64,000 nt of DNA, taken from an uncultured Alphaproteobacteria bacterium (GTDB lineage: Bacteria > Pseudomonadota > Alphaproteobacteria > Geminicoccales > Geminicoccaceae). Below are positions 25,599-44,336 of this stretch, in pieces (position 1 is the first letter of the stretch; the number at the start of each line of letters is the position of its first letter). The notes below the pieces were generated by a model that ran no database searches, was not told where the DNA came from, and saw only the letters and a program-made list of their open reading frames with translations. The stretch spans positions 7,178 to 71,177 of the forward strand of contig CAVSVZ010000006.1 of assembly GCA_963731495.1 (NCBI GenBank), written 5' to 3'. The translations under genes were made by a program, and so were the position numbers.

Positions 25599-25661
25599 CA
25601 CCAACGCAACGAATGCGTAAGGGTGGTGGCCAGCCACGCAGAGTTCGCTGACTACCACTAA
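25599..25661 (+). pseudogene. higB: possible 3' relic of higB (RelE/ParE-fold killer protein)
   Basis: 20 codons, ...ECVRVVASHAEFADYH*, ending 12 nt before the higA start. A ...DYH* C-terminus directly upstream of higA is characteristic of HigB. An in-frame stop at 25596-25598 marks where the cassette begins. Confidence 0.3.
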
Positions 25662-25673
25662 AGGAGAGGGACG

Positions 25674-26039
25674 ATGAGCATCCCGATCGAGGACGTGGCC
25701 GCGGGGCGGGTCGATTTCACCGACCTCGAGCGGCCGGGCCACAAGCGCCTGCCGCCCTTGCACCCTGGCGAGGTCCTGCGCGAGGAGTTTCTGGGGCCGC
25801 TCGATATGTCCGCCTATGCGCTCGGCAAAGCACTGCATGTGCCGCTCACCAGGATCACTGCGATCCTGGCCGGCGAGCGCGCGGTCAGCGCCGACACCGC
25901 GCTGCGGCTCGCCCGATTCTTCGGCACCACGCCGGAGTTCTGGATTCGCCTGCAGGGCACCTACGACCTGGAGGTGGCACGGTCCGAGCGCGGTGCCGCG
26001 ATCGCGGCGGAGGTACCGGAGCGGGTGCAGGTGGCCTGA
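25674..26039 (+). CDS. higA: HigA-family antitoxin (XRE-type HTH)
   Basis: 121-aa ORF with RBS AAGGAGAGGG. The sequence HPGEVLREEFLGPLDMSAYALGKALHVPLTRITAILAGERAVSADTALRLARFFGTTPEFWIRLQ is classic HigA/VapI. Confidence 0.85.
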   Translation: MSIPIEDVAAGRVDFTDLERPGHKRLPPLHPGEVLREEFLGPLDMSAYALGKALHVPLTRITAILAGERAVSADTALRLARFFGTTPEFWIRLQGTYDLEVARSERGAAIAAEVPERVQVA

Positions 26040-29093: not shown

Positions 29094-30406
29094 GTGATCC
29101 GGGAGGTGCTCCGGGTACGCCTCGATGCCGTGGATCTGGCCGAGCAACAGATCGCGGCTGCCTGGCCGGCGCCGGCGGCCGGGCCGCCCGATGCGGCGCC
29201 GATCCTGGTCTGGCCTTCGCCCCCGCGCCCGGATGTCGCGGCTAGCGGTGAGATTCCGTCCGAGGGGCGTGCGGCGCCGGGGGGTGCGGCTGGATCGACC
29301 GCCCGGGCGCGGGCCGATGTGCCGGCCGTGATCTGGCCGTCGCCGGCGCGGCCGGATGTCGCGGCCGGCAGCGGGATTCCGTCCGAGGGCGTGCGGCACC
29401 GGATGGTGCGGCTGGATCCGGCGCCAGGGTACTGGCCGATGTGCCGGCCGTGATCTGGTCGTCGCCGGTGCGATCGGATGTCGCGGCCGGCAGTGAGGTT
29501 TCGTCCGAGGGGCGTGCAGCGTCGGAGGGTGCTGCTGGATCCGGCGCCAAGGTGCTGGCCGATGTGCCGGCCGTGATCTGGCCGTCGCCGGCGCGGGCGG
29601 ATGTTGCGGCCGGCAGCGGGCCTCCGCCCGAGGAGCGTGCGGCGCAGGACGGTGCGGCGCGATCCGGCGCCAGCGTGGCGGCCGATCTTGGCGCGCCACC
29701 CGATGACGACGCTGGGTCCCGGACCGGCACTCCTTCCGAGACTGTGGCGACGCCACGGGTCGAGCGCGCGGACGGCGGGCAGGCGCCGGCCGCGGAGGTT
29801 GCGGACGGCGTCGGCATCAGCGTGTCGCGCGGCCTGGAGCCCGAGGGCGAGGCGCTGGCCCAGGTGGTCTGGGTGACCGATCGCACCGAGGATCTGCGCG
29901 CCGCCAGCCGCGCCGCCGGCGAGGCGCTGCGGGCCGGGCAGCCCGCGCGCGCGCTCGCGATCTATCAGGAGATCCTGACGCTCCTGCCCGGCGAGCGCTC
30001 GACCCTGCTCGGGGCGGCAGCGGCGTTGCGGCAGCTCGGACGGGCTGCCGAGACCGAGCACATCTACCGGCTGTTGCTGCGCAAGAATCCGCATGACCGG
30101 TTCGTCGAGACGGCGCTTTGGGGCCTGCTCGGCGAGCGTGAGCCACAGGCGGCGCTCGCGCAGCTCCGGCGGCTGGCCTGGCAGGATCGCGGTGACGGGC
30201 GGGTACGCGCGCAGATAGGCCTGATCCTGGCACGGCAGGGGCAGCTCGATCGGGCGATCGCCGAGCTGCAGGCGGCGCTGCGCCTCGATCCGGCCAATGC
30301 CCGCTACCGGGCCGATCTGCTCGCGCTGCGCGAGGCGATGGCCCGAGGCCCCCGCGCTGCCGACGGTTCCGAGCCGATCAGGGCGCTGGCGCCGACGCAC
30401 GAATGA
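29094..30406 (+). pseudogene. repeat-containing TPR protein (possible pilus accessory/pilotin-like), one frame change near 29387
   Basis: ORFs 29094..29453 and 29441..30406 join if one G is restored in a G-run. The N-terminal part carries four 41-aa repeats. The C-terminal ~170 aa are TPR-like (ALAIYQEILTLLPG..., AETEHIYRLLLRKNP..., LDRAIAELQAALRLDPANARY). The true start is uncertain. Confidence 0.55.
29199..29689. repeat. four tandem ~123-bp coding repeats
   Basis: Peptide units follow P(I/A)(L/V)(V/I)W(P/S)SP(P/A/V)R(P/S/A)DVAA(S/G)(G/S)..(P/S)SEGRAA(P/S).GAAGS.A...ADV. Unit 2 has GGG where unit 1 has GGGG. Confidence 0.85.
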
Positions 30407-30561
30407 GGCCGCTGGCAGAGGCGGCCGGACCAGCCGCCCTTTTTCGCGCCGGTCGGGCTCGCTGGCCACGCGCCTTCACCGAATCTTCACCAGCAGACAG
30501 CTTGATGAACCCTGCCCGAGGGCTGGCACCTCGAAGCGACGATCGGCGGGAAGAACGGTTC

Positions 30562-31654
30562 ATGGATATCGACAGGCTGCTGCAGCAGGCGATCGAGCTG
30601 GGCGCGTCGGATCTCCATCTGTCTGGCGGCACCCGCCGACCGTCCGGATCGATGGCGACATCCAGCGGCTCGATGCGCCACCGCTGGCGGGCGCCGAGAT
30701 CGGCACCATGCTGGCCGCGCTGCTCGCCGAGCCCCAGCGCGCCCAGCTCGAAGCCGACCTCGAGCTGGACCTTGCGATCGAGCACCGGAGCGGTGTGCGC
30801 TTTCGCGTCAATGCGTTCACGAACCGGGCCGGGCCCGCCGCGGTCTTCCGCGTGATCCCGCAGGGCATTCCGGCGCTGGCGGAGCTGGGCGCGCCGCCCG
30901 CGGTCGAGCGCGTCACCGTGCTGCAAAAAGGTCTGGTGCTGGTCACCGGCCCGACCGGCAGCGGCAAGTCGACCACCCTGGCGGCCCTGATCGACCACAT
31001 CAACACGACCGCCGCCCGCCACATTCTCACGATCGAGGATCCGATCGAGTTCACCCATCGCTCGAAGCGCTCGCTGATCAACCAGCGCGAGATCGGACGC
31101 GACAGCCGTTCCTTCGCCCGCGCCCTGCGCAGCGCGCTGCGCGAGGACCCGGACGTCATTCTGGTCGGCGAGCTGCGCGACCTCGAGACCATCAGCCTGG
31201 CGCTCACCGCCGCCGAGACCGGCCATCTGGTGCTCGGGACGCTGCATACGACCTCGGCCGCCAAGACCATCGATCGGCTGATCGATGTGTTCCCCTCGGC
31301 CGACAAGGCGATGGTCCGGACCATGCTCAGCGGCTCCCTGCGGGCGGTGATCGCCCAGACCCTGCTGCGGCGCAGGGACGGTGCCGGCCGCGTTGCCGCC
31401 TTCGAGATCCTGATCGGGACGCCGGCGGTCGCCAATCTGGTCCGCGCGACGAATCCCAGATCAGCGCAGATCAGACGCCGATGGGGCTGATCGACGCCGC
31501 CGAAGCGGTGCGCGGATCGGCCGCATGGACCGGCGAAGGACAGTCGAGCCGCAGCTCCCTGGCGCTCGACCTCGCATCGGCGGCTGGCGTCGGTCCCGAC
31601 AAGCGGGCCGGGCCCCGCCTGGCCGCCGCGGCCGAGCCGGACTATGCATTCTAG
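30562..31654 (+). pseudogene. pilT: PilT-type twitching-motility (retraction) ATPase, two frame changes
   Basis: Starts MDIDRLLQQAIELGASDLHLS (frame of ORF 30403..), then shifts near 30623. The core then reads PPTVRIDGDIQRL...GPTGSGKSTTLAA...ILTIEDPIEF...ILVGELRD...GHLVLGTLHT (ORF 30297..31490). After a shift near 31450 the tail reads RDESQISA..MGLIDAAEAV...DYAF* and ends at TAG 31652-31654, overlapping the secretin start. Confidence 0.8.
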
Positions 31655-33494
31655 CCAGCCGGACCAAGGGCCGAGCCCCAAATCGCGTCGGGGTGGCAGG
31701 AAACGCCGCGGCCGGGTCGCCGCGGCGCTGCTGCTGGCCGGCGTGCTGGTTGCGTGCGAGTCGGACCCGTTCGGCGAGCAGGATCGCTACGCCCATCTCA
31801 GCCGTGACGATTTCCGTGAGGCGCTCGAGCCCCGTCCCGTGCCGACCAAGGCCGAGGCGCCGGACGGGCCGCTCTCGCTGGCGCCCGAGCTCGAGCCGCT
31901 GCTCGATCTGCCCGAGGGGCCCTCGGCGATCGAAGGCAAGCTGGTCTCGATCTCGGTCAACGAGACGGTGCCGCTCAAGGACGTGCTGATCGAGCTTGCC
32001 CGCAAGGCGGAGGTCGACCTCGAGCTCGACCCGCGGATCGAGGGCGGCATCATCCTGACCATGCGCGATCGCCCGTTGCGCGACGTGATCGACCGGATCG
32101 CCGCGCTCGCCGGGCTACGTTATGAGTTCAGCGAGCAGGGCGTGCGCATCGCGCTCGACGAGCCCTACTATGCCAACTATCGGCTCGACTATCTGCATCT
32201 GACCCGGCAGTCGACCAGCTCGATCGAGACGTCGACCAGTATCACCGGCGGCGGCGCGGTCGAGGGCAACGCGTCGTCGAGCCAGGTCGGTGGCCAGAGC
32301 GAGAGCAACTTCTGGGCCGAGGTCGAGACCAGCCTCACCCAGATCCTGGCCAATTCCGCACCACAAAAACCGGTGATGCGCACGGTTGCCGCCGCGTCCG
32401 CCACCGAGACGCAGGTCGAGGGGCCGGGCATTGCGCAGGCGCTCAGCCCGACGCCCGAGGTCGCGACGGCGGGCGCAGAGACCGACACGGCGACGGTGTC
32501 GGGCCAGGTCGACGAGGAGGTCGGCGAGTTCACGATCAACCGCCAGGCGGGCATCATCTCGGTGTTCGGCAATCAGCGCCAGCATCGCCTGGTCGCGGAC
32601 TACCTGGCCGCGCTCCACCGCTCGGTCAGCCGCCAGGTCCTGATCGAGGCCAAGATCATGGACGTGGCGCTGTCCGACGAGTTCAACTCGGGCATCAATT
32701 GGCGCGCAGTGTTCGACAACATGTACAGCATCGGCGCGCCGCTCGGGAATCTGGTGGCGCCGGGACCCTTCTCCGGGCCGTTCGATGCCACGCCGGAGGT
32801 AGTCACCCTGGCGGTCGACAACAGCGATCTCGACGTCATCTTCAACTTCGTCCAGAAGTTCGGCACGGTGCGGACCCTGTCGAGCCCGCGCATTGCGGTG
32901 TTGCAGAACCAGACCGCGGTCCTCAAGGTCGCCGAGAACCAGGTGTTCTTTCAGCTGTTTTTCGAGCGCGTCGAGCGCGACAACGGCGACGACGTGGTCA
33001 ACATCAGCAGCGAGATCAAGACCGTTCCGGTCGGTGTGGTGATCACGGTCCAGCCCTCGATCAATGAGAGGTCCGGAGCGATCAGCCTGGCGCTGCGGCC
33101 GAGCATCACGAGGGTCACCGAGGTGGTCAACGATCCGGCGGTAGCGATCGCCTCCAACAACACGGTGGAGTCGCAAGTTCCGGTGATCGGGGTTCAGGAG
33201 ATCGATTCGGTCGTGACCATGCAATCCGGCCAGGTCGTGGTCATGGGCGGGCTGATGCGCAACATCGCCGAGAGCGAGGATCAGGGCGTGCCGGTGCTCG
33301 GTCAGCTGCCGTGGCTCGGCTATCTGTTCAAGGGACACAGCGACACGTATCGCAAGAGCGAGCTGGTGATCTTCCTGCGCGCCACGATTCTCGAGGATGG
33401 CGCGGACGGCGGCATCGATCCCGTCGACGCCGAGTTCTACCGCCGCTTCGGCGGTGATCGTCATCCCTTCCCGATGCCGAGCCTCGCGCCATGA
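31644..33494 (+). CDS. secretin, lipoprotein type (MshL/PilQ-like)
   Basis: 616-aa ORF with lipobox LLAGVLVAC. The C-terminal secretin domain reads ...QVLIEAKIMDVALSDEF...VRTLSSPRIAVLQNQTAVLKV...GVPVLGQLPWLGYLFKGHSDTYRKSELVIFLRATI. Confidence 0.85.
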   Translation: MHSSQPDQGPSPKSRRGGRKRRGRVAAALLLAGVLVACESDPFGEQDRYAHLSRDDFREALEPRPVPTKAEAPDGPLSLAPELEPLLDLPEGPSAIEGKLVSISVNETVPLKDVLIELARKAEVDLELDPRIEGGIILTMRDRPLRDVIDRIAALAGLRYEFSEQGVRIALDEPYYANYRLDYLHLTRQSTSSIETSTSITGGGAVEGNASSSQVGGQSESNFWAEVETSLTQILANSAPQKPVMRTVAAASATETQVEGPGIAQALSPTPEVATAGAETDTATVSGQVDEEVGEFTINRQAGIISVFGNQRQHRLVADYLAALHRSVSRQVLIEAKIMDVALSDEFNSGINWRAVFDNMYSIGAPLGNLVAPGPFSGPFDATPEVVTLAVDNSDLDVIFNFVQKFGTVRTLSSPRIAVLQNQTAVLKVAENQVFFQLFFERVERDNGDDVVNISSEIKTVPVGVVITVQPSINERSGAISLALRPSITRVTEVVNDPAVAIASNNTVESQVPVIGVQEIDSVVTMQSGQVVVMGGLMRNIAESEDQGVPVLGQLPWLGYLFKGHSDTYRKSELVIFLRATILEDGADGGIDPVDAEFYRRFGGDRHPFPMPSLAP

Positions 33495-34258
33495 CCAGCC
33501 TGCGTCCGCTGATCGCCTATCTGCTCCGCTCCGCGCTGGGGGACCGGCTGCTCACGGTGCTGGCGCTGGCGACCGTGGCCGGCGCGGCGCTCGCCGCCTT
33601 CGTCGGCAGCACGGCACTGGTGGAGAAGAGCGAGCTCACCACCGTCTATGCCGCCACCGCCGGCCGGTTCGTCGTGGTGGTCTGCCTGGTGCTGTTCACC
33701 TGCTTCCATGTGCGGCGGGCCTTCGAGACCCGTGAGGTCGATCTCCTGCTGTCGCGTCCGATCTCGCGCTTCGGCTTCGTCCTGGCCGAGATCGCGAGCC
33801 TGGTGCTGCTGGCCGGGCTCGGTGCGCTGCTGGCGGGCATCATGGTGGGCGCGACGGGTCGGCCCGAGCTGCCGGCACTCGGCTTTTGGACCCTGAGCCT
33901 GGCGGTCGAGGCGGCGATCGTCGCCAGCGCGGCTCTGTTCTTCGCCCTGATGCTGAGCAGCGGCGTCGCCAGCGCGCTCGCCTGTCTGGGCTTCTACGTG
34001 CTGTCCCGGATGATCGGCCTGTTGAGCGGCATCGCAGCCGCCCATGCCGGCGCCGGAGCGCTTGCCTGGCTGACCGATCAGGTGGTGTTCCTGCTCGGCC
34101 TGGTGCTGCCCCGGCTCGACCTGCTGGCCCGTACCAGCTGGCTGGTGCATGGCGCGGCGGAGCCTGCCGGTATCGGACTGGTGCTCGCCCAGGGCGTGGC
34201 CTATCTGGCCCTGCTGAGCGCGGTCGCCTGCATCGATTTCGAGCGCCGGGCGCTATGA
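33491..34258 (+). CDS. ABC-2-type permease-like membrane protein
   Basis: 255-aa ORF with an ATGA overlap with the secretin stop and ~6 hydrophobic helices. The segment FETREVDLLLSRPISRFGFVLAE resembles the E..E..LLLS.P.SR motif of ABC-2 permeases. Confidence 0.55.
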   Translation: MTSLRPLIAYLLRSALGDRLLTVLALATVAGAALAAFVGSTALVEKSELTTVYAATAGRFVVVVCLVLFTCFHVRRAFETREVDLLLSRPISRFGFVLAEIASLVLLAGLGALLAGIMVGATGRPELPALGFWTLSLAVEAAIVASAALFFALMLSSGVASALACLGFYVLSRMIGLLSGIAAAHAGAGALAWLTDQVVFLLGLVLPRLDLLARTSWLVHGAAEPAGIGLVLAQGVAYLALLSAVACIDFERRAL

Positions 34259-34974
34259 GCAGAGCCCGGCGGCGCGCCCTGATCGTGCTGGCCGCGGCGC
34301 TTGCTCTGCATGCCGCGCTGGCGCTGCATCATCGCGCGCTGCGCGCCGACTGGACGGGCGTGCCACCGGCGCCGCCGGTCCTGATCGCCCCGGCGATGGC
34401 GTTGGGGGACTCTCAGCTGTTCTACCGTGCTGCCGCCTTTGCCCTGCAGAACATGGGCGACGAGGGCGGCCGGATGACGCCGCTGGGCGACTACGACTAT
34501 GGCCGACTGGGCGACTGGCTCGATCTGCTCGATCTGCTCGATCCGCAGGCGCGCTACGCGCCGACCCTGGCCGCCTACTATTTCGGCCAGACGCCCAACC
34601 CGCATGACCTGCGACGTATCATCGCATATCTGAGCCGCGTCGGCGCGCGTGATCCAGCCCACAACTGGCGCTGGCTGACCCATGCCGCCTATCTGGCGCG
34701 GCACCGGCTGAAGGATCTGCCGCTGGCGCTCGAGGTGGCGCGCCACCTTGCCGGGCTGCCCGAAGGCGACGTGCCGCTCTGGGTGCGCCAGATGCCGGCC
34801 TTCGTGATGGCCGAGGTCGGCGAGCGCGAGGCGGCGCGCGATCTGATGGCGACGATTCGCGCGACCGACACCAACCTTTCGCCCGATGAGGTCGCCCTGA
34901 TCGATCGGTTCATCGAGGCTCAGGATCCGGCGCGGCAGCCGAATGCCCAGGCCGATGACGGCGAGCGCCGGTGA
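34255..34974 (+). CDS. hypothetical protein with N-terminal TM/signal anchor (cluster-specific)
   Basis: ATG 34255 (MSRARRRALIVLAAALALHAALAL...) has an ATGA overlap with the permease stop. No family recognised. Confidence 0.5.
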   Translation: MSRARRRALIVLAAALALHAALALHHRALRADWTGVPPAPPVLIAPAMALGDSQLFYRAAAFALQNMGDEGGRMTPLGDYDYGRLGDWLDLLDLLDPQARYAPTLAAYYFGQTPNPHDLRRIIAYLSRVGARDPAHNWRWLTHAAYLARHRLKDLPLALEVARHLAGLPEGDVPLWVRQMPAFVMAEVGEREAARDLMATIRATDTNLSPDEVALIDRFIEAQDPARQPNAQADDGERR

Positions 34975-35001
34975 CCGCGAGCATTCACGTATCGTTATCG
35001 A

Positions 35002-35017
35002 ATGGCAGGCATGTTGC
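35002..35017 (+). promoter_or_regulatory. sigma-54 (RpoN) -24/-12 promoter upstream of the pilin genes
   Basis: TGGCAGgcatgTTGCA versus consensus TGGCAC-N5-TTGCW. GG and GC have the correct spacing, with one mismatch. It lies 83 nt upstream of pilin ATG 35100. Confidence 0.55.
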
Positions 35018-35099
35018 AGCCACAACAACGGGGCAGGCTGTCCGATCTCGAGGGCGGCAGAGCCCCGGCATCAGACCAGAAACCGGGACCGAGGATGCC

Positions 35100-35822
35100 A
35101 TGAAGACAGTTCGATCGATCGGTGGCGCTTCGCCAAGTGCGGGCAGGCGCGAGTCGCAGCAAGGCTTCACCCTGGTCGAACTGGCGATTGTGCTCGTGAT
35201 CATCGGTCTGATCATCGGCGGCATCCTGAAGGGACAGGAGCTGATCGCCAGCGCGCGTCTCAAGTCGACGCTGACCGACGTCGACGCGATCCGGGCGGCC
35301 TCGGCGACCTTTCAGGACAAGTATGGCGGCTTTCCCGGCGACTATTTCCAGGGCCAGGCCCAGCTCGGCACGCCCAACGGCATCACCTGGACCTCGCCGC
35401 GCTGCAACGGCGGCAACCAGCTGTGCGACGGCGACGGCATCATCGAAGGCAACGGGCGGACCAACGAGACCTTGCTGTTCTGGCAACATCTCACCCTCGG
35501 CAACCTGATCTCGGGCATCGAGGTCGCGGCCTCGGTCGACGATTCGATCGGCGCCGGCCTGCCCTCGGCCGCGATCGGCGGCGGCCTTGCGGTGCAGTAC
35601 CAGGCGATCAGCGGCCGCACCACGCACTGGTTGCGGCTCGGCACAGGCGCAGCACTGACCACCGGCGTCGCGACCGGCGTCCAGGCGGACGGCATCGACA
35701 GCAAGATCGACGACGGCCGTCCCGGCACCGGCTCCGTGCGGGTCACGACCTCGGCATGCATCGACCGCGGCGACTACAATCCCAACGGCGACCAGTGCCT
35801 GATGTACTACGAGCTCAACTAG
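35100..35822 (+). CDS. type IV pilin / pseudopilin with prepilin N-terminal methylation motif
   Basis: MKTVRSIGGASPSAGRRESQQG|FTLVELAIVLVIIGLIIGG, with G-1, F+1, E+5 and a 22-aa leader. RBS is GAGGA. It has a C-terminal Cys pair (...TSACIDRGDYNPNGDQC...). Confidence 0.8.
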   Translation: MKTVRSIGGASPSAGRRESQQGFTLVELAIVLVIIGLIIGGILKGQELIASARLKSTLTDVDAIRAASATFQDKYGGFPGDYFQGQAQLGTPNGITWTSPRCNGGNQLCDGDGIIEGNGRTNETLLFWQHLTLGNLISGIEVAASVDDSIGAGLPSAAIGGGLAVQYQAISGRTTHWLRLGTGAALTTGVATGVQADGIDSKIDDGRPGTGSVRVTTSACIDRGDYNPNGDQCLMYYELN

Positions 35823-35851
35823 CCCACATGGTGGCTCCGGGGCGGCGGCCG

Positions 35852-36757
35852 ATGTCCCGCCTTCCGCTCCCCGCGCGCCGGGGGCGCTCGATCCGACCGG
35901 CGCGCAGCAACCGCTCGCCGTCGATCGGCGGCCCCGGCAGGCCCGTGCCGGCTGAGTCCGGCTTCACGCTGATCGAGCTGGCGATCGTGATGGCGGTGGT
36001 CGGCATCATCCTGGGCGGTGCGGTCCAGCTGCTCGGCGGCCAGCTCGACCATCAGCATGCCAAGATCACGCGCGAGCGCCTGCAGATCGCCTATGACGCG
36101 CTGGTCGCGTTCTACGCAACCAATACCTACCTTCCCTGTCCGGCCGACGGCTCGCTCGAGCGCGGCGACGCGAACTTCGGGCGCGCCCAGCCCGAAGGCA
36201 GCGGCGCCTGCACTGGCGGCGCGGTCGCCCCGAACGAGCGGGTGCTGCCCTGGCGCACGCTCGGTCTGCAGGACGGGCAATCCTACGATGGCTGGTATCG
36301 GCGCCTGAGCTACCATGTCAGCGATCCGCTCACCACGGCTGGCACCACCGGACCGGGCACGCTGGCGGTGCGCGACGGCGCGGCCGGCACGCCCGGCAGC
36401 AGCGAGCTGAGCGCGAATGCCGCCTTCGTGATCCTGAGCCACGGCGAGAATGGCTTGGGCGGCTGGCTCGAGAGCGGGCAGCGCATGAGCACCAGCGGCA
36501 TTCCGACCGATGAGGCCGAGAACGCCGACGGCGCGGAGCCGTTCGTCGACCGGCCGATCAGCGAGCTGGACGATGACGCGTTCGACGACGTGACGCTGTG
36601 GCGCGAGAAGCCGGCCCTGGCGCAAGCCGCGGGCGCGGTGTTCTCGGGCGCGATCTGCGGGGCGGCGGACACGCTCTGGGCCGACAACGGCTGTGCCCTC
36701 GGCAGCACGGACGAAGCGTGCGTCGCCGCCGGCGCGATCCGTTCGCGCTGCGGCTGA
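35852..36757 (+). CDS. second prepilin-type protein
   Basis: MSRLPLPARRG...PVPAESG|FTLIELAIVMAVVGIILGG, with a ~37-aa leader. The 301-aa protein has several Cys residues in the C-terminal region. Confidence 0.75.
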   Translation: MSRLPLPARRGRSIRPARSNRSPSIGGPGRPVPAESGFTLIELAIVMAVVGIILGGAVQLLGGQLDHQHAKITRERLQIAYDALVAFYATNTYLPCPADGSLERGDANFGRAQPEGSGACTGGAVAPNERVLPWRTLGLQDGQSYDGWYRRLSYHVSDPLTTAGTTGPGTLAVRDGAAGTPGSSELSANAAFVILSHGENGLGGWLESGQRMSTSGIPTDEAENADGAEPFVDRPISELDDDAFDDVTLWREKPALAQAAGAVFSGAICGAADTLWADNGCALGSTDEACVAAGAIRSRCG

Positions 36758-36904
36758 GCGCGTGGCCGGTCAGGCCGGCTCGATGGTTCACCAATTCTCA
36801 AAAACTCCGGGGTCCAATGCCCTTGTCGGGTGGTGGGCCGATGCTGCCCGGCGCCCGTCCCCGAGGCAGCGACCCTGCAGGAGGCCAGTCGGAAGCCCGT
36901 GACC

Positions 36905-38659
36905 ATGAGCCCGAATTCCGGTCTGCTCGAAGATCCTGCCGCGGTCGCGGAGGCCGACCTGGCGCCTGACGGGAGCAAGCCCGCCACGCGGATCGGCGAT
37001 CGCGTGCTCCAGCTCGGCCTGATCTCGCCCGACCAGCTCGAGGTCGCGCTGTTCGAGCAGAAGCGCTCGGGCGGGATGCTCGGCACGGTCCTGGTCGATC
37101 TCGGCTTCATCACCCAGGACATCCTGGCATCCCTGCTGGCCGAGGCATCGGGCTATCAACAGTTCGATCCGAAGACCGCGATGCTCGATCCCGAGGTGGT
37201 CGCGAAGGTCAGCAAGAGCATCGCAGCGCGCTATCGCGTCGTGCCGTTGTCGATCGAAGGCAACACCGTGTTCGTTGCCATGTGCGACCCCTATGACGTG
37301 CTCGCCCTCGACCAGCTCAGGCGTCAGTTCGGGATCGGCCTGGCAGTGGTGCCGCGGATCTGCTCGCCGCGCGACGTGGGCGAGCTGATCGACCGCGCCT
37401 ATGGCTACACCATGTCCTTCGACGGCATCGTCAAGGAGCTCGAGACCGGCGAGGTCGATCTCGACAGCATGGACAAGCCGGACGCCGCCTATGCCCACCC
37501 GCTGGTGCGTCTGGTCGATGCGATCCTTCTGGATGCGGTCAAGGTCGGCGCCTCCGACATCCACTTCGAGCCCGAAGAGCTGTTCCTGCGGCTGCGCTAC
37601 CGGGTCGATGGCGTGATGGCCCAGATCCGATCGTTCCATCGCGAGCATTGGTCGCCGATCTCACACCGCCTGAAGATCATGGCCGGCATGAACATCGCCG
37701 ACAAGCTGCACCCGCAGGACGGCCGGATCAGCCTCAATCTCGGCAATCGCGAGATCGACTTCCGGGTCGCCTCGCTGCCGACCGTGCATGGCGAGAACAT
37801 CGTCCTGCGCGTGCTCGACAAGACCCATTCCCAGGTCGAGCTCCACCAGCTCGGCATCAGCGCTCCCAATCTCGCCCTGGTCGAGCGCTCGCTCAAGCGG
37901 CCCGAGGGCGTGGTCGTGGTCACCGGCCCGACCGGCAGCGGCAAGACGACCACGCTGTACGCCATGCTCAGCCAGATCAGCTCGGTCGAGATCAACATCA
38001 TGACCCTCGAGGACCCGATCGAGTACCGCCTGCCGATGCTGCGCCAGACCCAGGTGCGCGAGCAGTCCGCCCTGGGCTTCGCCGAGGGTGTGCGCGCGAT
38101 CTTGCGGCAGGACCCGGATGTGGTGCTGATCGGCGAGGTGCGCGATCGGGACACCGCGGTCATGGCGCTGCGCGCGGCCATGACCGGCCATCTGGTGTTC
38201 ACGACACTGCACACCAACGACGCGATCGGGGCGGTGCCGCGGATGATGGATCTCGGCCTCGACCCGAGCATGATCGCCGGCAATGTCGTCGCCGTGCTCG
38301 CCCAGCGCCTGGTGCGCAGGCTCTGTCCGCGCTGCAAGACCTCGCGCCCGGCGAGCGCCGAGGAGTGCCGCATCCTCGGCGTCGATCCGGCTGCGCCGCC
38401 CTCGATCGGCGAGCCGGTGAGCTGTGAGCACTGCCGCTCGACCGGCTACCGGGGACGGCTGCCGCTGGTCGAGATCCTGATCATGGACGAAGAGCTCGAC
38501 GAGATCGTCGCATCGGGCGGCACCCGGGCCAAGCTGAAGGCGGCGGCGCTGCTCAAGGGCTATCGGACCATGGCCGACGACGGCATCGCCCGGGTGCTCT
38601 CGGGCGAGATCTCGCTCGCGTCCCTGATCCGCACGGTCGACCTGACCACGCGGCTGTAG
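36905..38659 (+). CDS. GspE/PilB/MshE-type assembly ATPase with MshEN-like N-terminal domain
   Basis: Walker A GPTGSGKTTTLYA, plus MTLEDPIEY, LIGEVRD, GHLVFTTLHTN and the tetracysteine CPRC...CEHC. N-terminal RIGDRVLQLGLISPDQLEVALFEQ matches the MshEN motif. Start ATG 36905 is preferred over 36830. Confidence 0.9.
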   Translation: MSPNSGLLEDPAAVAEADLAPDGSKPATRIGDRVLQLGLISPDQLEVALFEQKRSGGMLGTVLVDLGFITQDILASLLAEASGYQQFDPKTAMLDPEVVAKVSKSIAARYRVVPLSIEGNTVFVAMCDPYDVLALDQLRRQFGIGLAVVPRICSPRDVGELIDRAYGYTMSFDGIVKELETGEVDLDSMDKPDAAYAHPLVRLVDAILLDAVKVGASDIHFEPEELFLRLRYRVDGVMAQIRSFHREHWSPISHRLKIMAGMNIADKLHPQDGRISLNLGNREIDFRVASLPTVHGENIVLRVLDKTHSQVELHQLGISAPNLALVERSLKRPEGVVVVTGPTGSGKTTTLYAMLSQISSVEINIMTLEDPIEYRLPMLRQTQVREQSALGFAEGVRAILRQDPDVVLIGEVRDRDTAVMALRAAMTGHLVFTTLHTNDAIGAVPRMMDLGLDPSMIAGNVVAVLAQRLVRRLCPRCKTSRPASAEECRILGVDPAAPPSIGEPVSCEHCRSTGYRGRLPLVEILIMDEELDEIVASGGTRAKLKAAALLKGYRTMADDGIARVLSGEISLASLIRTVDLTTRL

Positions 38660-38668
38660 CACGCCGTC

Positions 38669-39877
38669 ATGCCGCACTATGCTTATCGCGCGGTCAACGC
38701 CAACGGGCGCCAGGTGCGTGGCTCGCTGGCGGCGGCCAACGAGATGGACCTGCAGAGCGCGCTGTTCGAGATCGGCCTCGAGCTGGTCGACTGCCGGACC
38801 GCCCGTGCCAGGCGCGGCCTCCTGGCGCTGCGTGATCGCATCACGACGCAGGATCTGATCCAGCTGTGCATTCACCTCGAGCAGATGCAGCGCGCCGGCG
38901 TGCCGCTCCTGCAGTGCCTGGCCGATGTTCGCGATTCCACGGGATCGCCGCGCCTGCGCGACCTGACCGCCGAGATCTACCGGGATGTCAGCGAGGGCCA
39001 GGTCCTGTCGGCCGCGTTCGCCGCGCATCCGCGGGTATTCGGCAACGTGTTCACGGCCCTGATCGCCGCCGGCGAGGCCACCGGCAACCTGGCCGAGAGC
39101 TTTCGCTACCTGGTGCGTCATCTCAAGTGGACCGACACGATGACCGCCAAGGTGCGCAAGGCGACCCGCTATCCGGCGGTGGTCGCGTTCGTGGTGCTGA
39201 GCGTGACCATCTTCCTGATGGCCGGCGTGGTGCCCCAGGTGGTCGACTTTCTGACCTCCAGCAATCAGGCCCTGCCGATCTGGACGACCGCGCTGATCGT
39301 CACCTCGGCGGTGGTGCAGGTCTACTGGCCGATCATCGTCGGCCTGCCGGTCGCCACGGCGGTCGCGATCCGGATCATGAAGCGCCGCTCGGAGGACGTG
39401 GCCTATCGGGTCGATGCGCTGATCCTGCGTCTGCCGGTCGTGGGCTCGGTCGTGCGCAAGATCGCGCTCGCCCGCTTCGCGCAGATGTTCGCGGTGATGT
39501 TCCAAAGCGGCATCGACATCCTGGCCTGCCTCGATTCCAGCCGCCGGGTGCTCGGCAACCGTGCGCTGGCGGAGGCGATGGCGCTGGTCAAGCAACAGGT
39601 CCAGGCGGGCAGCACGCTGTCGACCGCGATGGCCGCCTCGGGCGAATTCCCGACCAGGGTCACCCGCATGGTCAAGGTCGGCGAGGATACCGGCAATCTC
39701 GGACAGACCTTGCAGGAGGTCGCGGTGCTCTACGACCAGGACGTCGATCGGGCGATCGATAGTCTGATCGGCATGGTCGAGCCGATGCTGACCGCGGTGC
39801 TGGGGCTGATCATGGCATGGATCGCGCTCGCGGTGTTCGGGCCGATCTATGACAGCCTGGGTCAGATCGGCGCCTGA
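38669..39877 (+). CDS. GspF/PilC-type platform protein
   Basis: 402-aa ORF with duplicated T2SSF-like halves (...QDLIQLCIHLEQMQRAGVPLL... and ...ARFAQMFAVMFQSGIDIL...) and three TM segments. Confidence 0.9.
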   Translation: MPHYAYRAVNANGRQVRGSLAAANEMDLQSALFEIGLELVDCRTARARRGLLALRDRITTQDLIQLCIHLEQMQRAGVPLLQCLADVRDSTGSPRLRDLTAEIYRDVSEGQVLSAAFAAHPRVFGNVFTALIAAGEATGNLAESFRYLVRHLKWTDTMTAKVRKATRYPAVVAFVVLSVTIFLMAGVVPQVVDFLTSSNQALPIWTTALIVTSAVVQVYWPIIVGLPVATAVAIRIMKRRSEDVAYRVDALILRLPVVGSVVRKIALARFAQMFAVMFQSGIDILACLDSSRRVLGNRALAEAMALVKQQVQAGSTLSTAMAASGEFPTRVTRMVKVGEDTGNLGQTLQEVAVLYDQDVDRAIDSLIGMVEPMLTAVLGLIMAWIALAVFGPIYDSLGQIGA

Positions 39878-39878
39878 C

Positions 39879-41573
39879 ATGCTCGGCCGCCTGCTCGCTC
39901 CAAGCCCGCGCTTCGTGCTGACCATCGGCAACGAAGGCGGACTGCTGGCCCAGGTCGCGGGCGGCCGCGTGATCGAGGCCCGGCAAGTCGGCACCGACGA
40001 GGCGGCCTTCGCTGAGCTTGGCGCGGTGCTCGGCAAGCGTGCGCGCCGGCCGCTGGTCGTGCTGATCGACCTGCTGGAGCAGTCCTACCGCCAGGAGAGC
40101 GTGCCCAAGGTCAACCGGATGGATCGCTCGAAGGTCCTGGCGCGCAGGCTCGAGCGCGCGTTTCCGGATGCCGAGCTCAGGGCGGCGCTCGAGCGCGGCG
40201 ACGATCCGAACCAGCGCAGCACCCGGCGTTATCTGCTCGCCGCCGTGCCGCCCGCGCCCGACTGGACGCGATGGGTCGAGTTCCTGCGCACCATCGAGAA
40301 CCCGATCGTCGCCCTGACCCTGCTGCCGGTCGAGGTGGTGACCATGGTGACGCGCCTGGCCCGCCACCTGACGCCGGCGGACGCCGAGCCCCATCCCTGG
40401 ACGATCCTGATCAGCCGGCAGTCGACCGGCGGCGTGCGTCAGATCGTGGTCAATCGCGGTGAGCTCGCCTTGACCAGGCTGACCCCGAGTCTCACGCCCG
40501 AAGCGTCTCGGGCGCTCTCGCCGGGACGGCGGGGTTCGGCAGCCGAACCGGCGCACGAGCAGCCGGCCGGGCGGTCGGCGGAGGCCGAACCGACCGCGAG
40601 CGCCGCTGCCGGCACAGGCTCGATTGACGTGGTCGCCGCGACCCAGCACGAGCTGCGCGCGACCTTGGGCTACATGACCCGGCTCGGCTATCGCGCCGAC
40701 GCCGGCCTCGACATCATCGTGCTCGGCGATGACGTGCTGCGGCGCCAGTGGGCCGAAGCCATCCCGGGCGGCGCCAGGCTGCACATGCTGAGCGCGACCG
40801 AGGCAGCGGCCGCGCTCGGTCTCGGCCAGATCGGCGATCCCGAACACGGAACGCTGCTGTGCGCCGCCTGGACCGCACGCAGGCGCCAGCCCGCGATCCA
40901 GCTGCTGCCGGCCGACCTGCGCCGGCGCATGGTCGAGGAAGTGAGCCTGCGCTGGGCAGGCACGGGCCTCGGCGTCTCGGCCATCGGCCTGGCCAGCTAT
41001 GCTGCTTTCCTGGCGGTCACCGGCCTCGAGCTGGAGCATGAGATCGACTGGCTGCGCGCCTGGCAGGCGACGGCCCGGAGCCATCTCGAGCGCGACGGCG
41101 TGGACGCGGCGGCCGGCGCGGCATCGGCCGACGTGATGCGCGCGGTGCTGCAGGCGTACCGGCGCCTGCAAGGCGACCGGCTCGACCCGATCGCGCCGCT
41201 GCAGGCGCTGCGCGCGGCGATGGCGCGCGACGAGCAGCTGCTCAGTGTCGGCTGGCAGGTCGATCTCGGCAACGCCAGCGGGCGCGCCGAGCCTGACGAC
41301 GGATCCGGGCGCCAGGAGAGTGACGACTACACCATCGATCTGGTGCTCGATCTCGGCCGAGGCGACGAGCCGAGCACGGCGGTCGCCGCGACCGATCGCT
41401 TCGCCGCCAGGCTGGTCGACGGCTTTCCCGACCGGCCGATCCTGATCAAGCGTCAGGCGGTCAGCATCCTGCCGAACGAGAACTTCGTCGGCGGCGCGGG
41501 TCTGGTGCGCGAGCCCACGTCCGCAGAAGCCGAGATGAGCGCCGACCTGCGGATCGGCAGACGTCGGCGATGA
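39879..41573 (+). CDS. PilM-like / PilN-like fusion protein (MshI-like), tentative
   Basis: ATG 39879 lies 1 nt after the gspF stop. The N-terminal ~330 aa is cytoplasmic. It is followed by IQLLPADLRRRMVEE, a TM helix (AGTGLGVSAIGLASYAAFLAV) and a coiled segment as in PilN, then a periplasmic C-terminus. Confidence 0.5.
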   Translation: MLGRLLAPSPRFVLTIGNEGGLLAQVAGGRVIEARQVGTDEAAFAELGAVLGKRARRPLVVLIDLLEQSYRQESVPKVNRMDRSKVLARRLERAFPDAELRAALERGDDPNQRSTRRYLLAAVPPAPDWTRWVEFLRTIENPIVALTLLPVEVVTMVTRLARHLTPADAEPHPWTILISRQSTGGVRQIVVNRGELALTRLTPSLTPEASRALSPGRRGSAAEPAHEQPAGRSAEAEPTASAAAGTGSIDVVAATQHELRATLGYMTRLGYRADAGLDIIVLGDDVLRRQWAEAIPGGARLHMLSATEAAAALGLGQIGDPEHGTLLCAAWTARRRQPAIQLLPADLRRRMVEEVSLRWAGTGLGVSAIGLASYAAFLAVTGLELEHEIDWLRAWQATARSHLERDGVDAAAGAASADVMRAVLQAYRRLQGDRLDPIAPLQALRAAMARDEQLLSVGWQVDLGNASGRAEPDDGSGRQESDDYTIDLVLDLGRGDEPSTAVAATDRFAARLVDGFPDRPILIKRQAVSILPNENFVGGAGLVREPTSAEAEMSADLRIGRRRR

Positions 41574-42202
41574 TCCCGCGACGCCGCTCGATCAGGCGGG
41601 TGCTTGCGCTGCTCGCCATCAATGGGCTGCTCGGCGGGCTGAGCGTGGCGATCGCCCAGGGCTATACCGACGGGCGCGAGGCGACCCGCGACCGGCTGTC
41701 CCGCCAGCTGCGCAACCTGAGCAGCGAGCGCTCGTTGAGCGAGGAGGAGCGGGCATATCTGGAGTCGAACCGCGCCACCTACCAGGCGCTGGTCGAGCGG
41801 GGCCTGCTGACACCACCCGATCGGCTGGCGGCTGCGGCGCTGCTCGAGCACCTGCAGGCAGCGCACGGCCTGAACGCGATCCGCTACAGCTTCAGCCCCC
41901 AGCTCGAGCGTGCGTCGGAGCCCGGCGACGGTCGCCTGTCGGTGCTCTCGACCAACGTCACGATCGAGATGTTCGGCATCACCGACAACGACATGCTCGG
42001 CTTCGCCGAAGCGGTTCTCAGCGACTTTCCGGGCGATGTCCGGGTCACCGGCCTGCGCCTGAGCCGGCGCGAAACGGTCGATGCCAGCGTGCTCAATCGC
42101 CTGCGGGCGGGCGAGGCGATCGATCTGGTCGAGGGCCTGCTGACCTTCGAGTGGCGCAGCTTTCAGTGGCGCGAACGAGCCCATGCGCCGGCCAACTCGT
42201 GA
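41570..42202 (+). CDS. PilO/MshJ-like bitopic membrane protein, tentative
   Basis: ATGA overlap with the previous gene. It has an N-terminal TM helix (VLALLAINGLLGGLSVAIA), a coiled region and a periplasmic domain. Confidence 0.4.
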   Translation: MIPRRRSIRRVLALLAINGLLGGLSVAIAQGYTDGREATRDRLSRQLRNLSSERSLSEEERAYLESNRATYQALVERGLLTPPDRLAAAALLEHLQAAHGLNAIRYSFSPQLERASEPGDGRLSVLSTNVTIEMFGITDNDMLGFAEAVLSDFPGDVRVTGLRLSRRETVDASVLNRLRAGEAIDLVEGLLTFEWRSFQWRERAHAPANS

Positions 42203-42741
42203 TGCGCGGCCTGCCGGCATGGCTCGCCAGCGCGCTGCTCGCTCTGGCGCCCGCAGCCGCGGCCGGGCCCGACCAGCAGACGGCGCCAGGCGTGTCCGTC
42301 GAGCGCAAGCAGGCTCAGGACTCGCTGCTGTTCTCGCGCCGCATCCAGGACCTGCTCGAGGCGGCGCGCCGCGCGCGCGGCGCGGCGGTGAGTGCAGCGC
42401 CTGCCGATCCGGCGTCGCCGCTGCCGGTCGCCGGCCCCGGCGCGCTGCATCTGTCGGCGATCCTCTACGAGGGCCCGAGCGACTGGCAGATCTGGCTGAA
42501 CGGTCGCAGCTTTGCGCAAAGCGGCGTTGCCGGCGCGGTCGAGGTGCTGCGCGTGCAGCGCGATTCAGTGCGACTGAAATGGCGCGGCGCCGGCGCACGG
42601 CGGCCGGCCGAGATCACCCTACGACCCAACCAGACCTACATCGTGGCCACCGGCGAGATCGTCGAGGGTCCGCCCGATCGTGCCTGGCGCGCGCCCCGGC
42701 GAGCCGAGGAACGGGCGGAGCGAAGTGCCGCGACGCCATGA
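42202..42741 (+). CDS. secreted hypothetical protein (cluster-specific)
   Basis: TGATG overlap with the previous gene. Signal peptide is MRGLPAWLASALLALAPAAAAG. No family recognised. Confidence 0.45.
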   Translation: MRGLPAWLASALLALAPAAAAGPDQQTAPGVSVERKQAQDSLLFSRRIQDLLEAARRARGAAVSAAPADPASPLPVAGPGALHLSAILYEGPSDWQIWLNGRSFAQSGVAGAVEVLRVQRDSVRLKWRGAGARRPAEITLRPNQTYIVATGEIVEGPPDRAWRAPRRAEERAERSAATP

Positions 42742-42753
42742 GGAGCGATAAGC

Positions 42754-43488
42754 ATGACCGACGCCATTGAGATCGCCGGCCTGTGCAGCCGCTACGGACG
42801 TACCGACGTGCTGGAGGACATCACCCTGAACGTCCGCCAGGGCGAGATCCTCGGCCTGATCGGCCTCAACGGCGCCGGCAAGAGCACGCTCTTGAAGTCG
42901 ATCCTGACGCTGGTCGTGCCCACCGCAGGCGTGGTCCATCTGTTCGGCGTCGCGCACGACCAGCCGAGCAGCCGGGCACAGCTCGCCTATCTGCCCGAAA
43001 AATTTCAGCCGCCCAGCCACCTGTGCGGCCACGATTTCGTGCGGCTGTCGCTCGCGTTCTACCGCCAGCGGGTGACCCGCGCGGTCGCCTGCCTGAAGGC
43101 CGAGGAGCTCGATCTCGACCCGGCCGCGTTGCGCCGCCCGATTCGCAGCTACTCCAAAGGCATGGCGCAAAAGCTCGGGATCCTGGCGACCCTGCTGACC
43201 GACCGGCCGCTGCTGATCCTGGACGAGCCGATGAGCGGGCTCGATCCCAAGGCGCGGATCCTGCTCAAACGGCAGCTGGTCGAGGCGCGTGCGCGCGGCC
43301 GCACGGTGTTCATGAGCTCGCACATCCTGGCCGACCACGACGAGCTGTGCGATCGGGTCGCGGTCCTGCACGACGGCCGGCTCGGCTATGTCGGCTCGCC
43401 GGCCGGGCTCAAGGAGAGCCAGGGCGCGCCGACCCTCGAGACGGCGTTCCTCGCGTCGATCGAGCGGCCTCGCCGGGCCACCGCCTGA
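42754..43488 (+). CDS. ABC transporter ATP-binding protein (ABC-2 exporter type)
   Basis: Walker A GLNGAGKSTLL, signature YSKGMAQKL, Walker B LLILDEPMSGLD and H-loop SSHIL. Confidence 0.9.
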   Translation: MTDAIEIAGLCSRYGRTDVLEDITLNVRQGEILGLIGLNGAGKSTLLKSILTLVVPTAGVVHLFGVAHDQPSSRAQLAYLPEKFQPPSHLCGHDFVRLSLAFYRQRVTRAVACLKAEELDLDPAALRRPIRSYSKGMAQKLGILATLLTDRPLLILDEPMSGLDPKARILLKRQLVEARARGRTVFMSSHILADHDELCDRVAVLHDGRLGYVGSPAGLKESQGAPTLETAFLASIERPRRATA

Positions 43489-43496
43489 GCCCGCGC

Positions 43497-44159
43497 TCAG
43501 GCCAGCTGGAGCGCCAGGCTGTCCAGATGGTCCTTGGCGTGCTCCAGGCTGCAGGCATCCGCCTCGTCGGCGGCGGGTGCCTCGAGCACGATGTGCGTGA
43601 GATGGTCGATCTCGGTGAGCAGAGGGGCAAGCTCCTCCGTCGAGCCGGCGTCGAGCGCCTGTCTGCCGAGGCTCGCCATCCGATCGACCCGCTCGAGCGT
43701 CTCCTCGGCGCAGGAGGTGACCAGCCCGGCCTGCTCGACCACGGTCGCGCGCGCGCCGTGCCGGCTGCTGACCGAGCGCATCTGATCGGCGATGTCCTCG
43801 ACCGACCGGCGTAGGCCGTAGCCGGTGCCCGGCCAGAACAAGGCGATCCCGGTCGACGTGACTGTCGGCGTCGGCGGATACGACGGATCGATCGCATAGA
43901 GCAGGTTGTTGATCTGCTGCTTGGCCTCGGCGGGCTCGTCGGCGGCCAACGCGAAGCCGGCGCTCTGCAACGCCGTCTGGGCATCCTGCATGGCCATGTA
44001 CAGGAGGCCCTGCCTGGCCGGCACGTCGCTGTCGCTGACCAGTACGCGATCGAGACTGGGATCGCTCTGCCGGTCGCCGCCGATCAGGCCGGGCGCGCAG
44101 CCCGCCAGAAGCCCGATCGAGAAGATCACGCCCATCAACCTCTGTAGTGTCCTGGTCAT
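43497..44159 (-). CDS. hypothetical lipoprotein
   Basis: ATG 44159 with RBS AGGAGA. The N-terminus MTRTLQRLMGVIFSIGLLAGC contains a lipobox. Confidence 0.55.
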   Translation of the reverse strand: MTRTLQRLMGVIFSIGLLAGCAPGLIGGDRQSDPSLDRVLVSDSDVPARQGLLYMAMQDAQTALQSAGFALAADEPAEAKQQINNLLYAIDPSYPPTPTVTSTGIALFWPGTGYGLRRSVEDIADQMRSVSSRHGARATVVEQAGLVTSCAEETLERVDRMASLGRQALDAGSTEELAPLLTEIDHLTHIVLEAPAADEADACSLEHAKDHLDSLALQLA

Positions 44160-44336
44160 CTCTCCTACGCCTCGATTGCGTTTGTGCTCGACGCCGCCAG
44201 CTCCCGGCGGCATCTATTAACGGAAACGGGCTGGCCAAACCAGTGATCATCGTCCTTGCACGGCGGCCCGCAGCATGCCGGGCTTGCGGCCGCCGGCAAG
44301 CCCGCCTCGGGACCAACGGAACGCCAGGAGTGATCG

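Follow-up and report, generated by a model that had tools for sequence, protein, structure and literature searches.

The cluster and its ABC module

The question raised by this locus is whether two genes for an ATP-binding cassette (ABC) transporter, which lie inside a 14-kb cluster of genes resembling those of type IV pili, belong to the pilus machine or are merely its neighbours. The locus is in a 64,000-nucleotide stretch of DNA from an uncultured alphaproteobacterium of the Geminicoccaceae (GenBank assembly GCA_963731495.1, contig CAVSVZ010000006.1, positions 7,178 to 71,177 of the forward strand), the whole of which is hereafter called the window and which has about 69% G+C across its length. 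An earlier note on this DNA had claimed that the ABC permease and the ABC ATPase are part of the pilus operons and not chance neighbours, and the survey of gene neighbourhoods in relatives that is described below upholds this claim. The reading that we favour, with a probability of roughly 55%, is that the locus is one copy of a type IV pilus-like machine, widespread in Alphaproteobacteria, which stands between the layouts of the mannose-sensitive hemagglutinin (MSHA) pilus and the type II secretion system (T2SS), and which has a dedicated ABC-2 accessory that acts on a component of the machine. Comparison of sequences supports the ABC module as a conserved accessory of this MSH/T2SS-like pilus lineage, analogous to PilGHI of Myxococcus, with a putative substrate and a putative mechanism.

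A listing of open reading frames (ORFs) together with Pfam and NCBIfam profile searches places every gene of the cluster, from 29.1 to 43.5 kb, on the + strand. The order is a tetratricopeptide repeat (TPR) protein, PilT, an MshL-like lipoprotein secretin, an ABC-2-type permease, a single-pass membrane protein that we call UnkTM and two prepilins, and then an MshE-like ATPase, GspF, a PilM/GspL-like fusion, a PilO/GspM-like protein, a small secreted protein that we call SecUnk, and the ABC ATPase. This order had been proposed earlier and is borne out by the profile searches and two structure models, and the overlaps reported with it were all found, namely ATGA at 33491, 34255 and 41570, TGATG at 42202, and a 1-nt gap at 39877/39879. 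The secretin and the genes of the ABC module are the following.

31644..33494, + strand: MshL-like lipoprotein secretin (PF00263, 117.8 bits; best NCBIfam match TIGR02519 MshL)
33491..34258, + strand: ABC-2-type permease, polytopic, 6-7 hydrophobic segments; ATGA overlap with the secretin stop
34255..34974, + strand: UnkTM, 239 residues, predicted single-pass inner-membrane protein with a periplasmic all-alpha TPR-like domain; ATGA overlap with the permease stop
42754..43488, + strand: ABC ATPase of a pilus-linked subfamily (ABC_tran PF00005, 87.9 bits)

Three proteins make up the module: the permease with its 6-7 segments, UnkTM, always found next to the permease, and the ATPase, which is encoded apart from them and whose catalytic motifs are intact. 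By their start/stop overlaps the secretin, the permease and UnkTM are predicted to be translationally coupled. The secretin scores 224.2 bits against MshL TIGR02519 (cutoff 250.2), far above its scores for GspD (120) and PilQ (87), and its N-terminus bears a lipobox (...GVLVAC). The permease had been called ABC-2-like, an assignment for which, besides its hydrophobic segments, its relatives speak: PF12679 or PF12698 is present in eight of its homologues (29-59% identity), and a search of the PDB with a permease profile gave PmtD, the permease of a phenol-soluble modulin exporter, as the nearest solved relative (E = 5e-4). The protein of the window itself has no direct match to a Pfam model.

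UnkTM has no match in Pfam, in NCBIfam or, at the sequence level, in the PDB. In its AlphaFold2 (AF2) model (pLDDT 91.6) a transmembrane helix at the N-terminus leads into an all-alpha repeat domain, which the positive-inside rule places in the periplasm, and in Foldseek the model matched generic TPR proteins only (YfgM, BamD and MamA, E about 0.03-0.1). YfgM and BamD are membrane or periplasmic TPR chaperones. The search for relatives gave 647 representatives at E <= 1e-3 among 1.84 billion searched, with lengths of 190-290 residues in nearly all of the 150 listed of these 647, and by sequence UnkTM is a discrete family. With 647 representative clusters and no Pfam model, it is a clean sequence marker for the lineage. 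Two members of this otherwise uniform family, whose proteins have about 230-290 residues, are unusual: P0353, of 2009 residues, has 27 separate stretches that match the UnkTM profile, and P0319, of 423 residues, has an extra C-terminal half.

In the ABC ATPase the Walker A (GLNGAGKST), signature (YSKGMAQK), Walker B (LLILDEP) and H-loop (SSHIL) motifs are intact, as one would require of an ABC-2 (type V) exporter, and all four are invariant among 14 orthologues. A profile built from the ATPase gave at least 249 bits for orthologues as against at most 185 bits for generic ABC ATPases; judged by these scores the pilus-linked ATPase is a sharply bounded subfamily.

The module in related genomes

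All 75 relatives of the permease in the databases are either unnamed or carry generic ABC-permease names. When one genome per GTDB species was scanned with the permease alignment 79 loci were obtained, which with four others gave 83, and a flank of 10 kb was taken on either side of the permease. The 79 loci are mostly from metagenome-assembled genomes (MAGs) labelled Alphaproteobacteria, Micavibrio, Rhodospirillales/Rhodospirillaceae, Rickettsiales, Midichloriaceae or Holosporaceae, and the remaining ones are labelled only Proteobacteria/Pseudomonadota or, in three cases, Bdellovibrionales or Actinomarina. The odd labels of L059, L069, L040 and L045 (a 'Rickettsia typhi' MAG, 'Candidatus Actinomarina' and 'Bdellovibrionales') are probably errors of binning or labelling and not occurrences outside the Alphaproteobacteria.

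UnkTM lies directly 3' of the permease in 83 of 83 loci, usually abutting or overlapping it, and the secretin lies directly 5' of the permease in at least 63 of 73, several of the apparent exceptions being partial tblastn matches. Micavibrio-like, free-living and Rickettsia-like bacteria together provide about 90 related loci in which the pump is paired with its membrane-anchored helper. If the permease and the TPR protein work with the secretin to which they are coupled in nearly every locus, this would add a conserved ATP-driven accessory to the pilus machine. The gene order of the window is shared by L076 and, up to the end of its contig, by L004. One group of loci, with the Micavibrio-labelled bins among its members, has GspF-PilMN-PilO-SecUnk-ABC ATPase, a gap, and then TPR-PilT-PilT2-Secretin-Perm-UnkTM-pilins (Perm being the permease and PilMN the PilM/GspL-like fusion). 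A JGI contig, L084, has TPR-AAA_22-prepilin peptidase-Secretin-Perm-UnkTM-AraC-pilin and then MshE-GspF-PilMN-PilO-SecUnk-ABC ATPase with PilT following on the opposite strand, and this gene content ties the lineage to MSHA-type accessories. Beside Perm-UnkTM in two distant loci there is a gene with an adenylate/guanylate cyclase domain (L003, 6881-8167; L101, 6778-8163), which may be a recurring regulatory neighbour.

The second survey started from the ATPase. In a metagenome scan with the alignment of ATPase orthologues 21 loci had at least 43% identity and all remaining loci had 40% or less. In 16 of the 21 the orthologue is beside pilus genes, in three gene orders. SecUnk is immediately upstream of the ATPase in 12 of them, with GspE-GspF-PilMN-PilO before SecUnk where the contig reaches that far. 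The order is Perm-UnkTM-(cyclase)-pilin-pilin-ATPase in L101, Perm-UnkTM-pilin-ATPase in L111 (whose ATPase, at 39% identity, is outside the 21) and pilin-ATPase in L105, whereas in L102 the ATPase is next to a divergently oriented secretin and in L103 next to a divergent cluster of secretin, GspE, GspF, PilMN and PilO. L085, a close relative, is an uninformative 2.1-kb contig with only 180 nt upstream of the ATPase. In the last four of the 21 loci no pilus gene was seen; three of the four are on short contigs, and the other is L088, to which we return below. That the association of the ATPase with the pilus was kept through at least three gene orders makes chance or simple vertical inertia hard to invoke, and chance adjacency of the ABC genes was rejected on synteny.

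The loci closest to the window are informative in another way. In the closest relative, L167 (PilMN 91% identical), the order of the window continues through the ATPase to a minus-strand lipoprotein gene, an aldolase and a molybdopterin oxidoreductase. In L165 and L166, which are independent contigs of about 77-84% identity whose ATPase is 90% identical to that of the window, the order is Perm-UnkTM-pilin 1-ABC ATPase-lipoprotein-aldolase; pilin 1 is directly upstream of the ABC ATPase (L165, 1105-2596; L166, 1929-3467) and pilin 2-GspE-GspF-PilMN-PilO-SecUnk is absent. Since L166 still has, just before its ATPase, about 70 nt with homology to the 5' end of pilin 2 of the window, the 6.9-kb block from pilin 2 to SecUnk (35.83-42.74 kb of the window) was evidently deleted there. 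In the clade of the window the permease, UnkTM, pilin 1 and the ATPase have stayed together and conserved despite this deletion. The lipoprotein-like gene (lipobox LLAGC) is found in the window at 43497-44213 on the minus strand, convergent with the ABC ATPase and without a family match; its position is kept in L076, L085 and L165-L167 (41-70% identity) and not in distant lineages.

It could be argued that the module is an ordinary exporter of a separate cargo, such as a surface polysaccharide, a lipid or a small peptide, which is co-regulated with the pilus and is not part of the machine. Like PmtABCD, GldAFG, NosDFY and CcmAB, it has a separately encoded nucleotide-binding domain and a small six-segment ABC-2-type permease. 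The best family matches of the ATPase are of the DrrA, GldA, NodI and PmtA types, and exporters for drugs, lantibiotics, Nod factors and gliding are the families to which it comes closest. For the permease the nearest relative is an exporter of peptides, PmtD also being among the matches, and JGI names several permease homologues NosY-type. Moreover, the ATPase is sometimes unlinked, the ABC genes persist where the assembly operon has been deleted, and PilGHI-like genes in Geobacter are said to be tied to exopolysaccharide export. However, no gene for a glycosyltransferase, a polymerase or a peptide precursor is conserved with the module, start/stop overlaps bind it to the secretin and to PilO/SecUnk, its association with the pilus outlasts three rearrangements, and UnkTM is beside the permease in every locus and in no other context. 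We regard a separate exporter as unlikely. As for the systems named, the similarity to them is remote (for PmtD, E = 5e-4), they are unlike this module in its pilus context, and its TPR-like single-pass partner is unrelated to them; several of them act on membrane-embedded or periplasmic clients and not on soluble substrates. Export of a glycan for pilin glycosylation was set aside for want of a glycosyltransferase gene conserved alongside the module.

The machine and its relation to known systems

The other genes from the first prepilin onwards, with a candidate promoter element, are the following.

35003..35018, + strand: candidate sigma-54-like -24/-12 element, TGGCAGGCATGTTGCA, 82 nt upstream of pilin 1
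35100..35822, + strand: prepilin 1 (N_methyl, 29.6 bits), 22-residue leader, G/FTLVE, C-terminal Cys pairs
35852..36757, + strand: prepilin 2 (N_methyl, 29.2 bits), leader of about 37 residues, G/FTLIE
36905..38659, + strand: assembly ATPase of GspE/PilB/MshE type (T2SSE, 407.8 bits; MshEN PF05157, 70.2 bits, cutoff 23.1)
38669..39877, + strand: GspF/PilC-type platform protein (T2SSF, 174 bits; TIGR02120 GspF, 296 bits, cutoff 424)
39879..41573, + strand: PilM-N/GspL-like fusion, 564 residues (AF2 model and Foldseek)
41570..42202, + strand: PilO/GspM-like bitopic protein, 210 residues (weak GspM match, E = 0.004; transmembrane residues 11-29)
42202..42741, + strand: SecUnk, small secreted protein, 179 residues, adjoining the ABC ATPase upstream in most loci

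The ORF of the assembly ATPase opens at 36830 and its likely ATG is at 36905. The protein has the MshE-type cyclic di-GMP (c-di-GMP) motif (NF053729, 59.9 bits, cutoff 38) and is under the equivalog cutoffs for both GspE (498, cutoff 630) and PilB (491, cutoff 676). The earlier note had described the product of 39879-41573 as a PilM-N-like fusion, and at the level of the fold this is supported. Its AF2 model (pLDDT 68.6 overall, about 85-90 in the N-terminal domain) has a PilM-like cytoplasmic actin-fold domain, a long helix that includes a transmembrane segment, and a periplasmic ferredoxin-like alpha/beta domain, an architecture that is that of GspL, and its N-terminal domain matches PilM (5eoy, E = 1.5e-9) and also FtsA and the cytoplasmic domains of EpsL/GspL in Foldseek; no sequence-level family was found in Pfam, NCBIfam or a PDB profile search. 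The PilO/GspM-like protein has an N-terminal transmembrane segment, a coiled coil and a C-terminal domain, and its position after the PilM/GspL-like gene is conserved, while a PDB profile search with it returned coiled-coil noise only. SecUnk matches nothing in Pfam (including a scan of 19 orthologues), NCBIfam or the PDB; in the alignment of the 19 orthologues a C-terminal segment and W98, N100 and G101 are conserved. By its position SecUnk may be the counterpart of PilP/GspC/MshK, and the earlier statement that the window has no PilP-like lipoprotein is for that reason not secure. Three proteins of the cluster, one of them for much of its length, had been left nameless, and for UnkTM and SecUnk it remains the case that no Pfam or NCBIfam family fits, whereas the model of 39879-41573 leads to PilM, FtsA and EpsL/GspL.

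Both prepilins are large, with long leaders and C-terminal Cys pairs. A sigma-54 promoter had been proposed upstream of pilin 1, where TGGCAGGCATGTTGCA is the sole one-mismatch sigma-54 match in the window; the candidate is thus present but it is not conserved in relatives that share about 60% identity. In the distant locus L003 a good sigma-54 consensus, TGGCATGCGATTTGCT, is found upstream of its pilin.

With which of the known machines does this one belong? Judged by the NCBIfam cutoffs, the cluster lies outside the equivalogs of the type IVa pilus (T4aP) and of T2SS and at the edge of MshL: GspD (120, cutoff 351), GspE, GspF, PilB and PilQ (87, cutoff 284) are all under their cutoffs and MshL is slightly under, which agrees with the earlier view that it matches no canonical layout. 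It resembles the T4aP in that its retraction ATPase is of the PilT/PilU family (TIGR01420), and differs from it in the PilB and PilQ scores and in the fusion of PilM and PilN. It has in common with the MSHA pilus of the Vibrio cholerae type the MshL-like lipoprotein secretin, the assembly ATPase with MshEN and the c-di-GMP motif, the TPR protein (frame-broken here) and, in the relative L084, an AAA_22 (MshM-like) protein. Unlike the MSHA pilus, it has an MshL score under the family cutoff, a PilT in the cluster, a PilM-PilN fusion in GspL style in place of separate MshI/J/K, a gene order other than that of msh, and the ABC-2 module, which to our knowledge is not part of msh operons.

The likeness to T2SS is such that the machine could be a T2SS-like secretion system with a pseudopilus and not a surface pilus, the ABC module then serving secretion. 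For several of the parts, among them the ATPase and the platform protein, the NCBIfam models that score highest or nearly so are GspE, GspF, GspG/H and GspM, and 39879-41573 has the fused architecture of GspL. Every Gsp equivalog score is, however, under its cutoff, the secretin is MshL-like and not GspD-like, and no GspC, GspD or GspI/J/K set was found, the matches to GspG/H being to the N-terminal motif only. Besides, there are only two pilin genes, both large and with C-terminal Cys pairs, and most lineages have a gene of the PilT family in their cluster, often two of them. We consider such a secretion system improbable and keep to a pilus-like machine.

The precedent that had been named for an ABC transporter in type IV pili, PilG/PilH/PilI of Myxococcus xanthus, is valid. 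The PilGHI ABC transporter is known from the type IV pilus clusters of Myxococcales and from related clusters (PMC6060248), and it was reported to be essential for piliation and for translocation of pilin across the inner membrane (PMC3724824). In both arrangements a type IV pilus cluster includes genes for an ABC ATPase, a membrane permease and an accessory protein, and in several of the loci studied here the ABC genes come right after a pilin gene, as in Myxococcus. They differ in that the host pilus here is MSH/T2SS-like and not a canonical T4aP, in that the module here is split, with Perm-UnkTM after the secretin and the ATPase after the alignment-complex genes, and in that the accessory here is a single-pass TPR-like protein. 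Among the NCBIfam matches of the cluster proteins there was no model named for PilG, PilH or PilI. The question what the ABC transporter does in Myxococcus was reportedly first raised in 1998, and an association that is split, rearranges and yet persists gives a comparative handle on it.

As far as can be told, an integrated ABC module conserved across related lineages has apparently not yet been described; none was found in the literature searched, the coverage of which was incomplete. Published reconstructions infer a type IV pilus in the ancestor of Rickettsiales, and attachment to host or prey is invoked for the pili of basal Rickettsiales, Midichloriaceae and Micavibrio-like predators, which are inferred to be ancestral (PMC9352585, PMC10847448). 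In the passages of these two papers on the pili the machines are inventoried by their standard parts only and no ABC component is mentioned.

What the module may act on

These data lead to the question what the module would do in the machine. A probable arrangement is that a permease dimer and an ATPase dimer would form an ABC-2 half-transporter in the inner membrane, on which UnkTM would dock and from which it would reach into the periplasm. Hydrolysis of ATP would then move or release a membrane-embedded component of the machine on the periplasmic side, which would make the module the functional counterpart of PilGHI. The client that we favour is the lipidated secretin, with UnkTM as a pilotin-like or chaperone-like TPR dock, because the Secretin-Perm-UnkTM triad is nearly universal and is predicted to be translationally coupled, because UnkTM resembles TPR docks that handle outer-membrane proteins, and because no recognisable pilotin is present.

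The main alternative client is the hydrophobic N-terminal helix of the pilin, which the module would extract from, or deliver to, the inner membrane at the (pre)pilin stage, as has been proposed for PilGHI. Gene order speaks for this in some loci: Perm-UnkTM-pilin-ATPase is found in L101, L111, L165 and L166, pilin-ATPase in L105, and in the window, as in many other loci, the gene after UnkTM encodes a prepilin. The permease is also PmtD-like, and PmtD exports amphipathic helical peptides. On the other hand, the coupling of Secretin-Perm-UnkTM is much more widespread than pilin adjacency, a TPR partner has no clear role in such a mechanism, and insertion and extraction of pilins are normally carried out by Sec/SRP and PilB/PilC. 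Even with the reported essential role of PilGHI in inner-membrane pilin translocation (PMC3724824) on its side, action on pilins instead of the secretin seems to us rather doubtful.

A further-reaching possibility, which we put forward tentatively, is that permease, UnkTM and ATPase are an unrecognised core subcomplex of the whole pilus lineage, in which an ABC-2 motor with a TPR arm extracts lipidated secretin or pilins, or hands them over. If this is true, it would be a dedicated assembly motor without a described counterpart and would also explain the role of PilGHI.

Several observations weigh against an accessory that is dedicated to the machine and acts on the secretin. The client is a guess, and the pilin adjacency in L101, L111, L165 and L166 together with the PmtD similarity favours the pilin. 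The support comes from comparison and structural prediction, from which the function is inferred; the permease has no direct Pfam match, the likeness of UnkTM is confined to generic TPR proteins (best E about 0.03), and the analogy of the module to PilGHI is one of gene content and putative function. Among the 26 loci with enough flank whose permease is 37% or less identical to that of the window, most of them labelled Rickettsiales, 24 have no ATPase orthologue within 10 kb. In L088, whose genome has 40% G+C, the ATPase orthologue (9983-10702, 315 bits) is alone among Obg, PurQ-like, response-regulator and Fic genes, which suggests that in low-GC lineages, perhaps also in the group just named, the ATPase need not be linked to the pilus genes. 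L165 and L166 hold the ABC genes without an adjacent assembly operon, so the module may not need the machine, or a second copy of the machine may be elsewhere in these genomes. Finally, pilT and the TPR gene are interrupted in the window.

Interrupted genes and possible decay of the window copy

The two interrupted genes are at the 5' end of the cluster.

29094..30406, + strand: TPR-repeat protein gene in MshN-like position, frame-broken (TPR_19, TPR_14 and TPR_2 matches on 29441-30406)
30562..31490, + strand: pilT, retraction ATPase, interrupted (TIGR01420, 393.5 bits, cutoff 319.1)

The TPR protein had been taken as one gene from 29094, and this is not correct for the sequence as it stands: the pieces 29094-29453 and 29441-30406 are in different frames, separated by a 1-nt frame break, so that the start at 29094 and the TPR ORF at 29441 do not form one reading frame. 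The N-terminal part of the gene has a tandem repeat of 123 bp (41 codons) in 3.9 copies at 29209-29686, found with Tandem Repeats Finder. The break is a single base inside the second copy, and the repeat peptide, ...DVPAVIWPSPARPDVAAGSG.PSEG..., can be read in two frames. The orthologue in L004 is one intact ORF of 410 amino acids.

A pilT in the cluster had been correctly recognised by family; that this copy is broken had been overlooked. With the intact PilT of L004 as query, tblastn gave a match split between two frames of the window: residues 1-23 fall in frame +1 (30562-30630), residues 24-295 are read from frame +3 (30630-31445), and beyond residue 295 there was no alignment. DNA alignment shows a 1-nt deletion at about 30630, where one A of an AA pair is missing in GGCGGC(A)ACCCGCC. 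Past 31445 a run of indels follows, through which about 84 residues at the C-terminus are lost and not recoverable (window 30562-31643). An unrelated SBP_bac_5 gene at 19315-21288 also has a frame break, at about 21000-21120, where the Pfam match covers 211 of 368 profile positions and the phase of G+C at third codon positions (GC3) switches frame. The broken pilT and TPR gene may be pseudogenes or may reflect indel errors of the assembly, the break in SBP_bac_5 bearing on the second. Either retraction may have been lost in the window copy or the assembly may carry indel errors.

The broken pilT and the block deletion described above may be signs that in this clade the machine is decaying or being reorganised. 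It is conceivable that the locus is decaying in this organism and makes no working retractile pilus, which is compatible with the other explanations. The pilT frame break with its lost C-terminus, the broken TPR gene, and the deletion of the assembly block in close relatives, where the 5'-end remnant of pilin 2 was left behind, speak for decay. Yet all twelve genes in the stretch that runs from the secretin to the ABC ATPase are unbroken and rich in GC3, the full downstream order is kept in the closest relative, L167, and the frame break in the unrelated SBP_bac_5 gene near 21 kb makes assembly indels possible. We regard decay as a possibility, though not the expected case.

Other genes of the window

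The absence from the window of a prepilin peptidase and a PilS/PilR-type regulator, noted earlier, was confirmed in that none was found, and neither was an AAA_22/MshM-like gene, in a Pfam scan of ORFs chosen by a GC3 filter; the prepilin peptidase and MshM of relatives, used as tblastn queries, had no match in the window. The ORFs scanned otherwise encode metabolism and transport proteins and one large CHASE2-PAS-GGDEF-EAL protein (1734-4544, minus strand), which is 25 kb from the pilus ATPase with the c-di-GMP-binding MshEN motif. At 24000-26000, G+C dips to 0.55 as against about 0.69 elsewhere; this stretch, which has a small HTH_3 gene at 25662-26039, may be foreign or mobile DNA.

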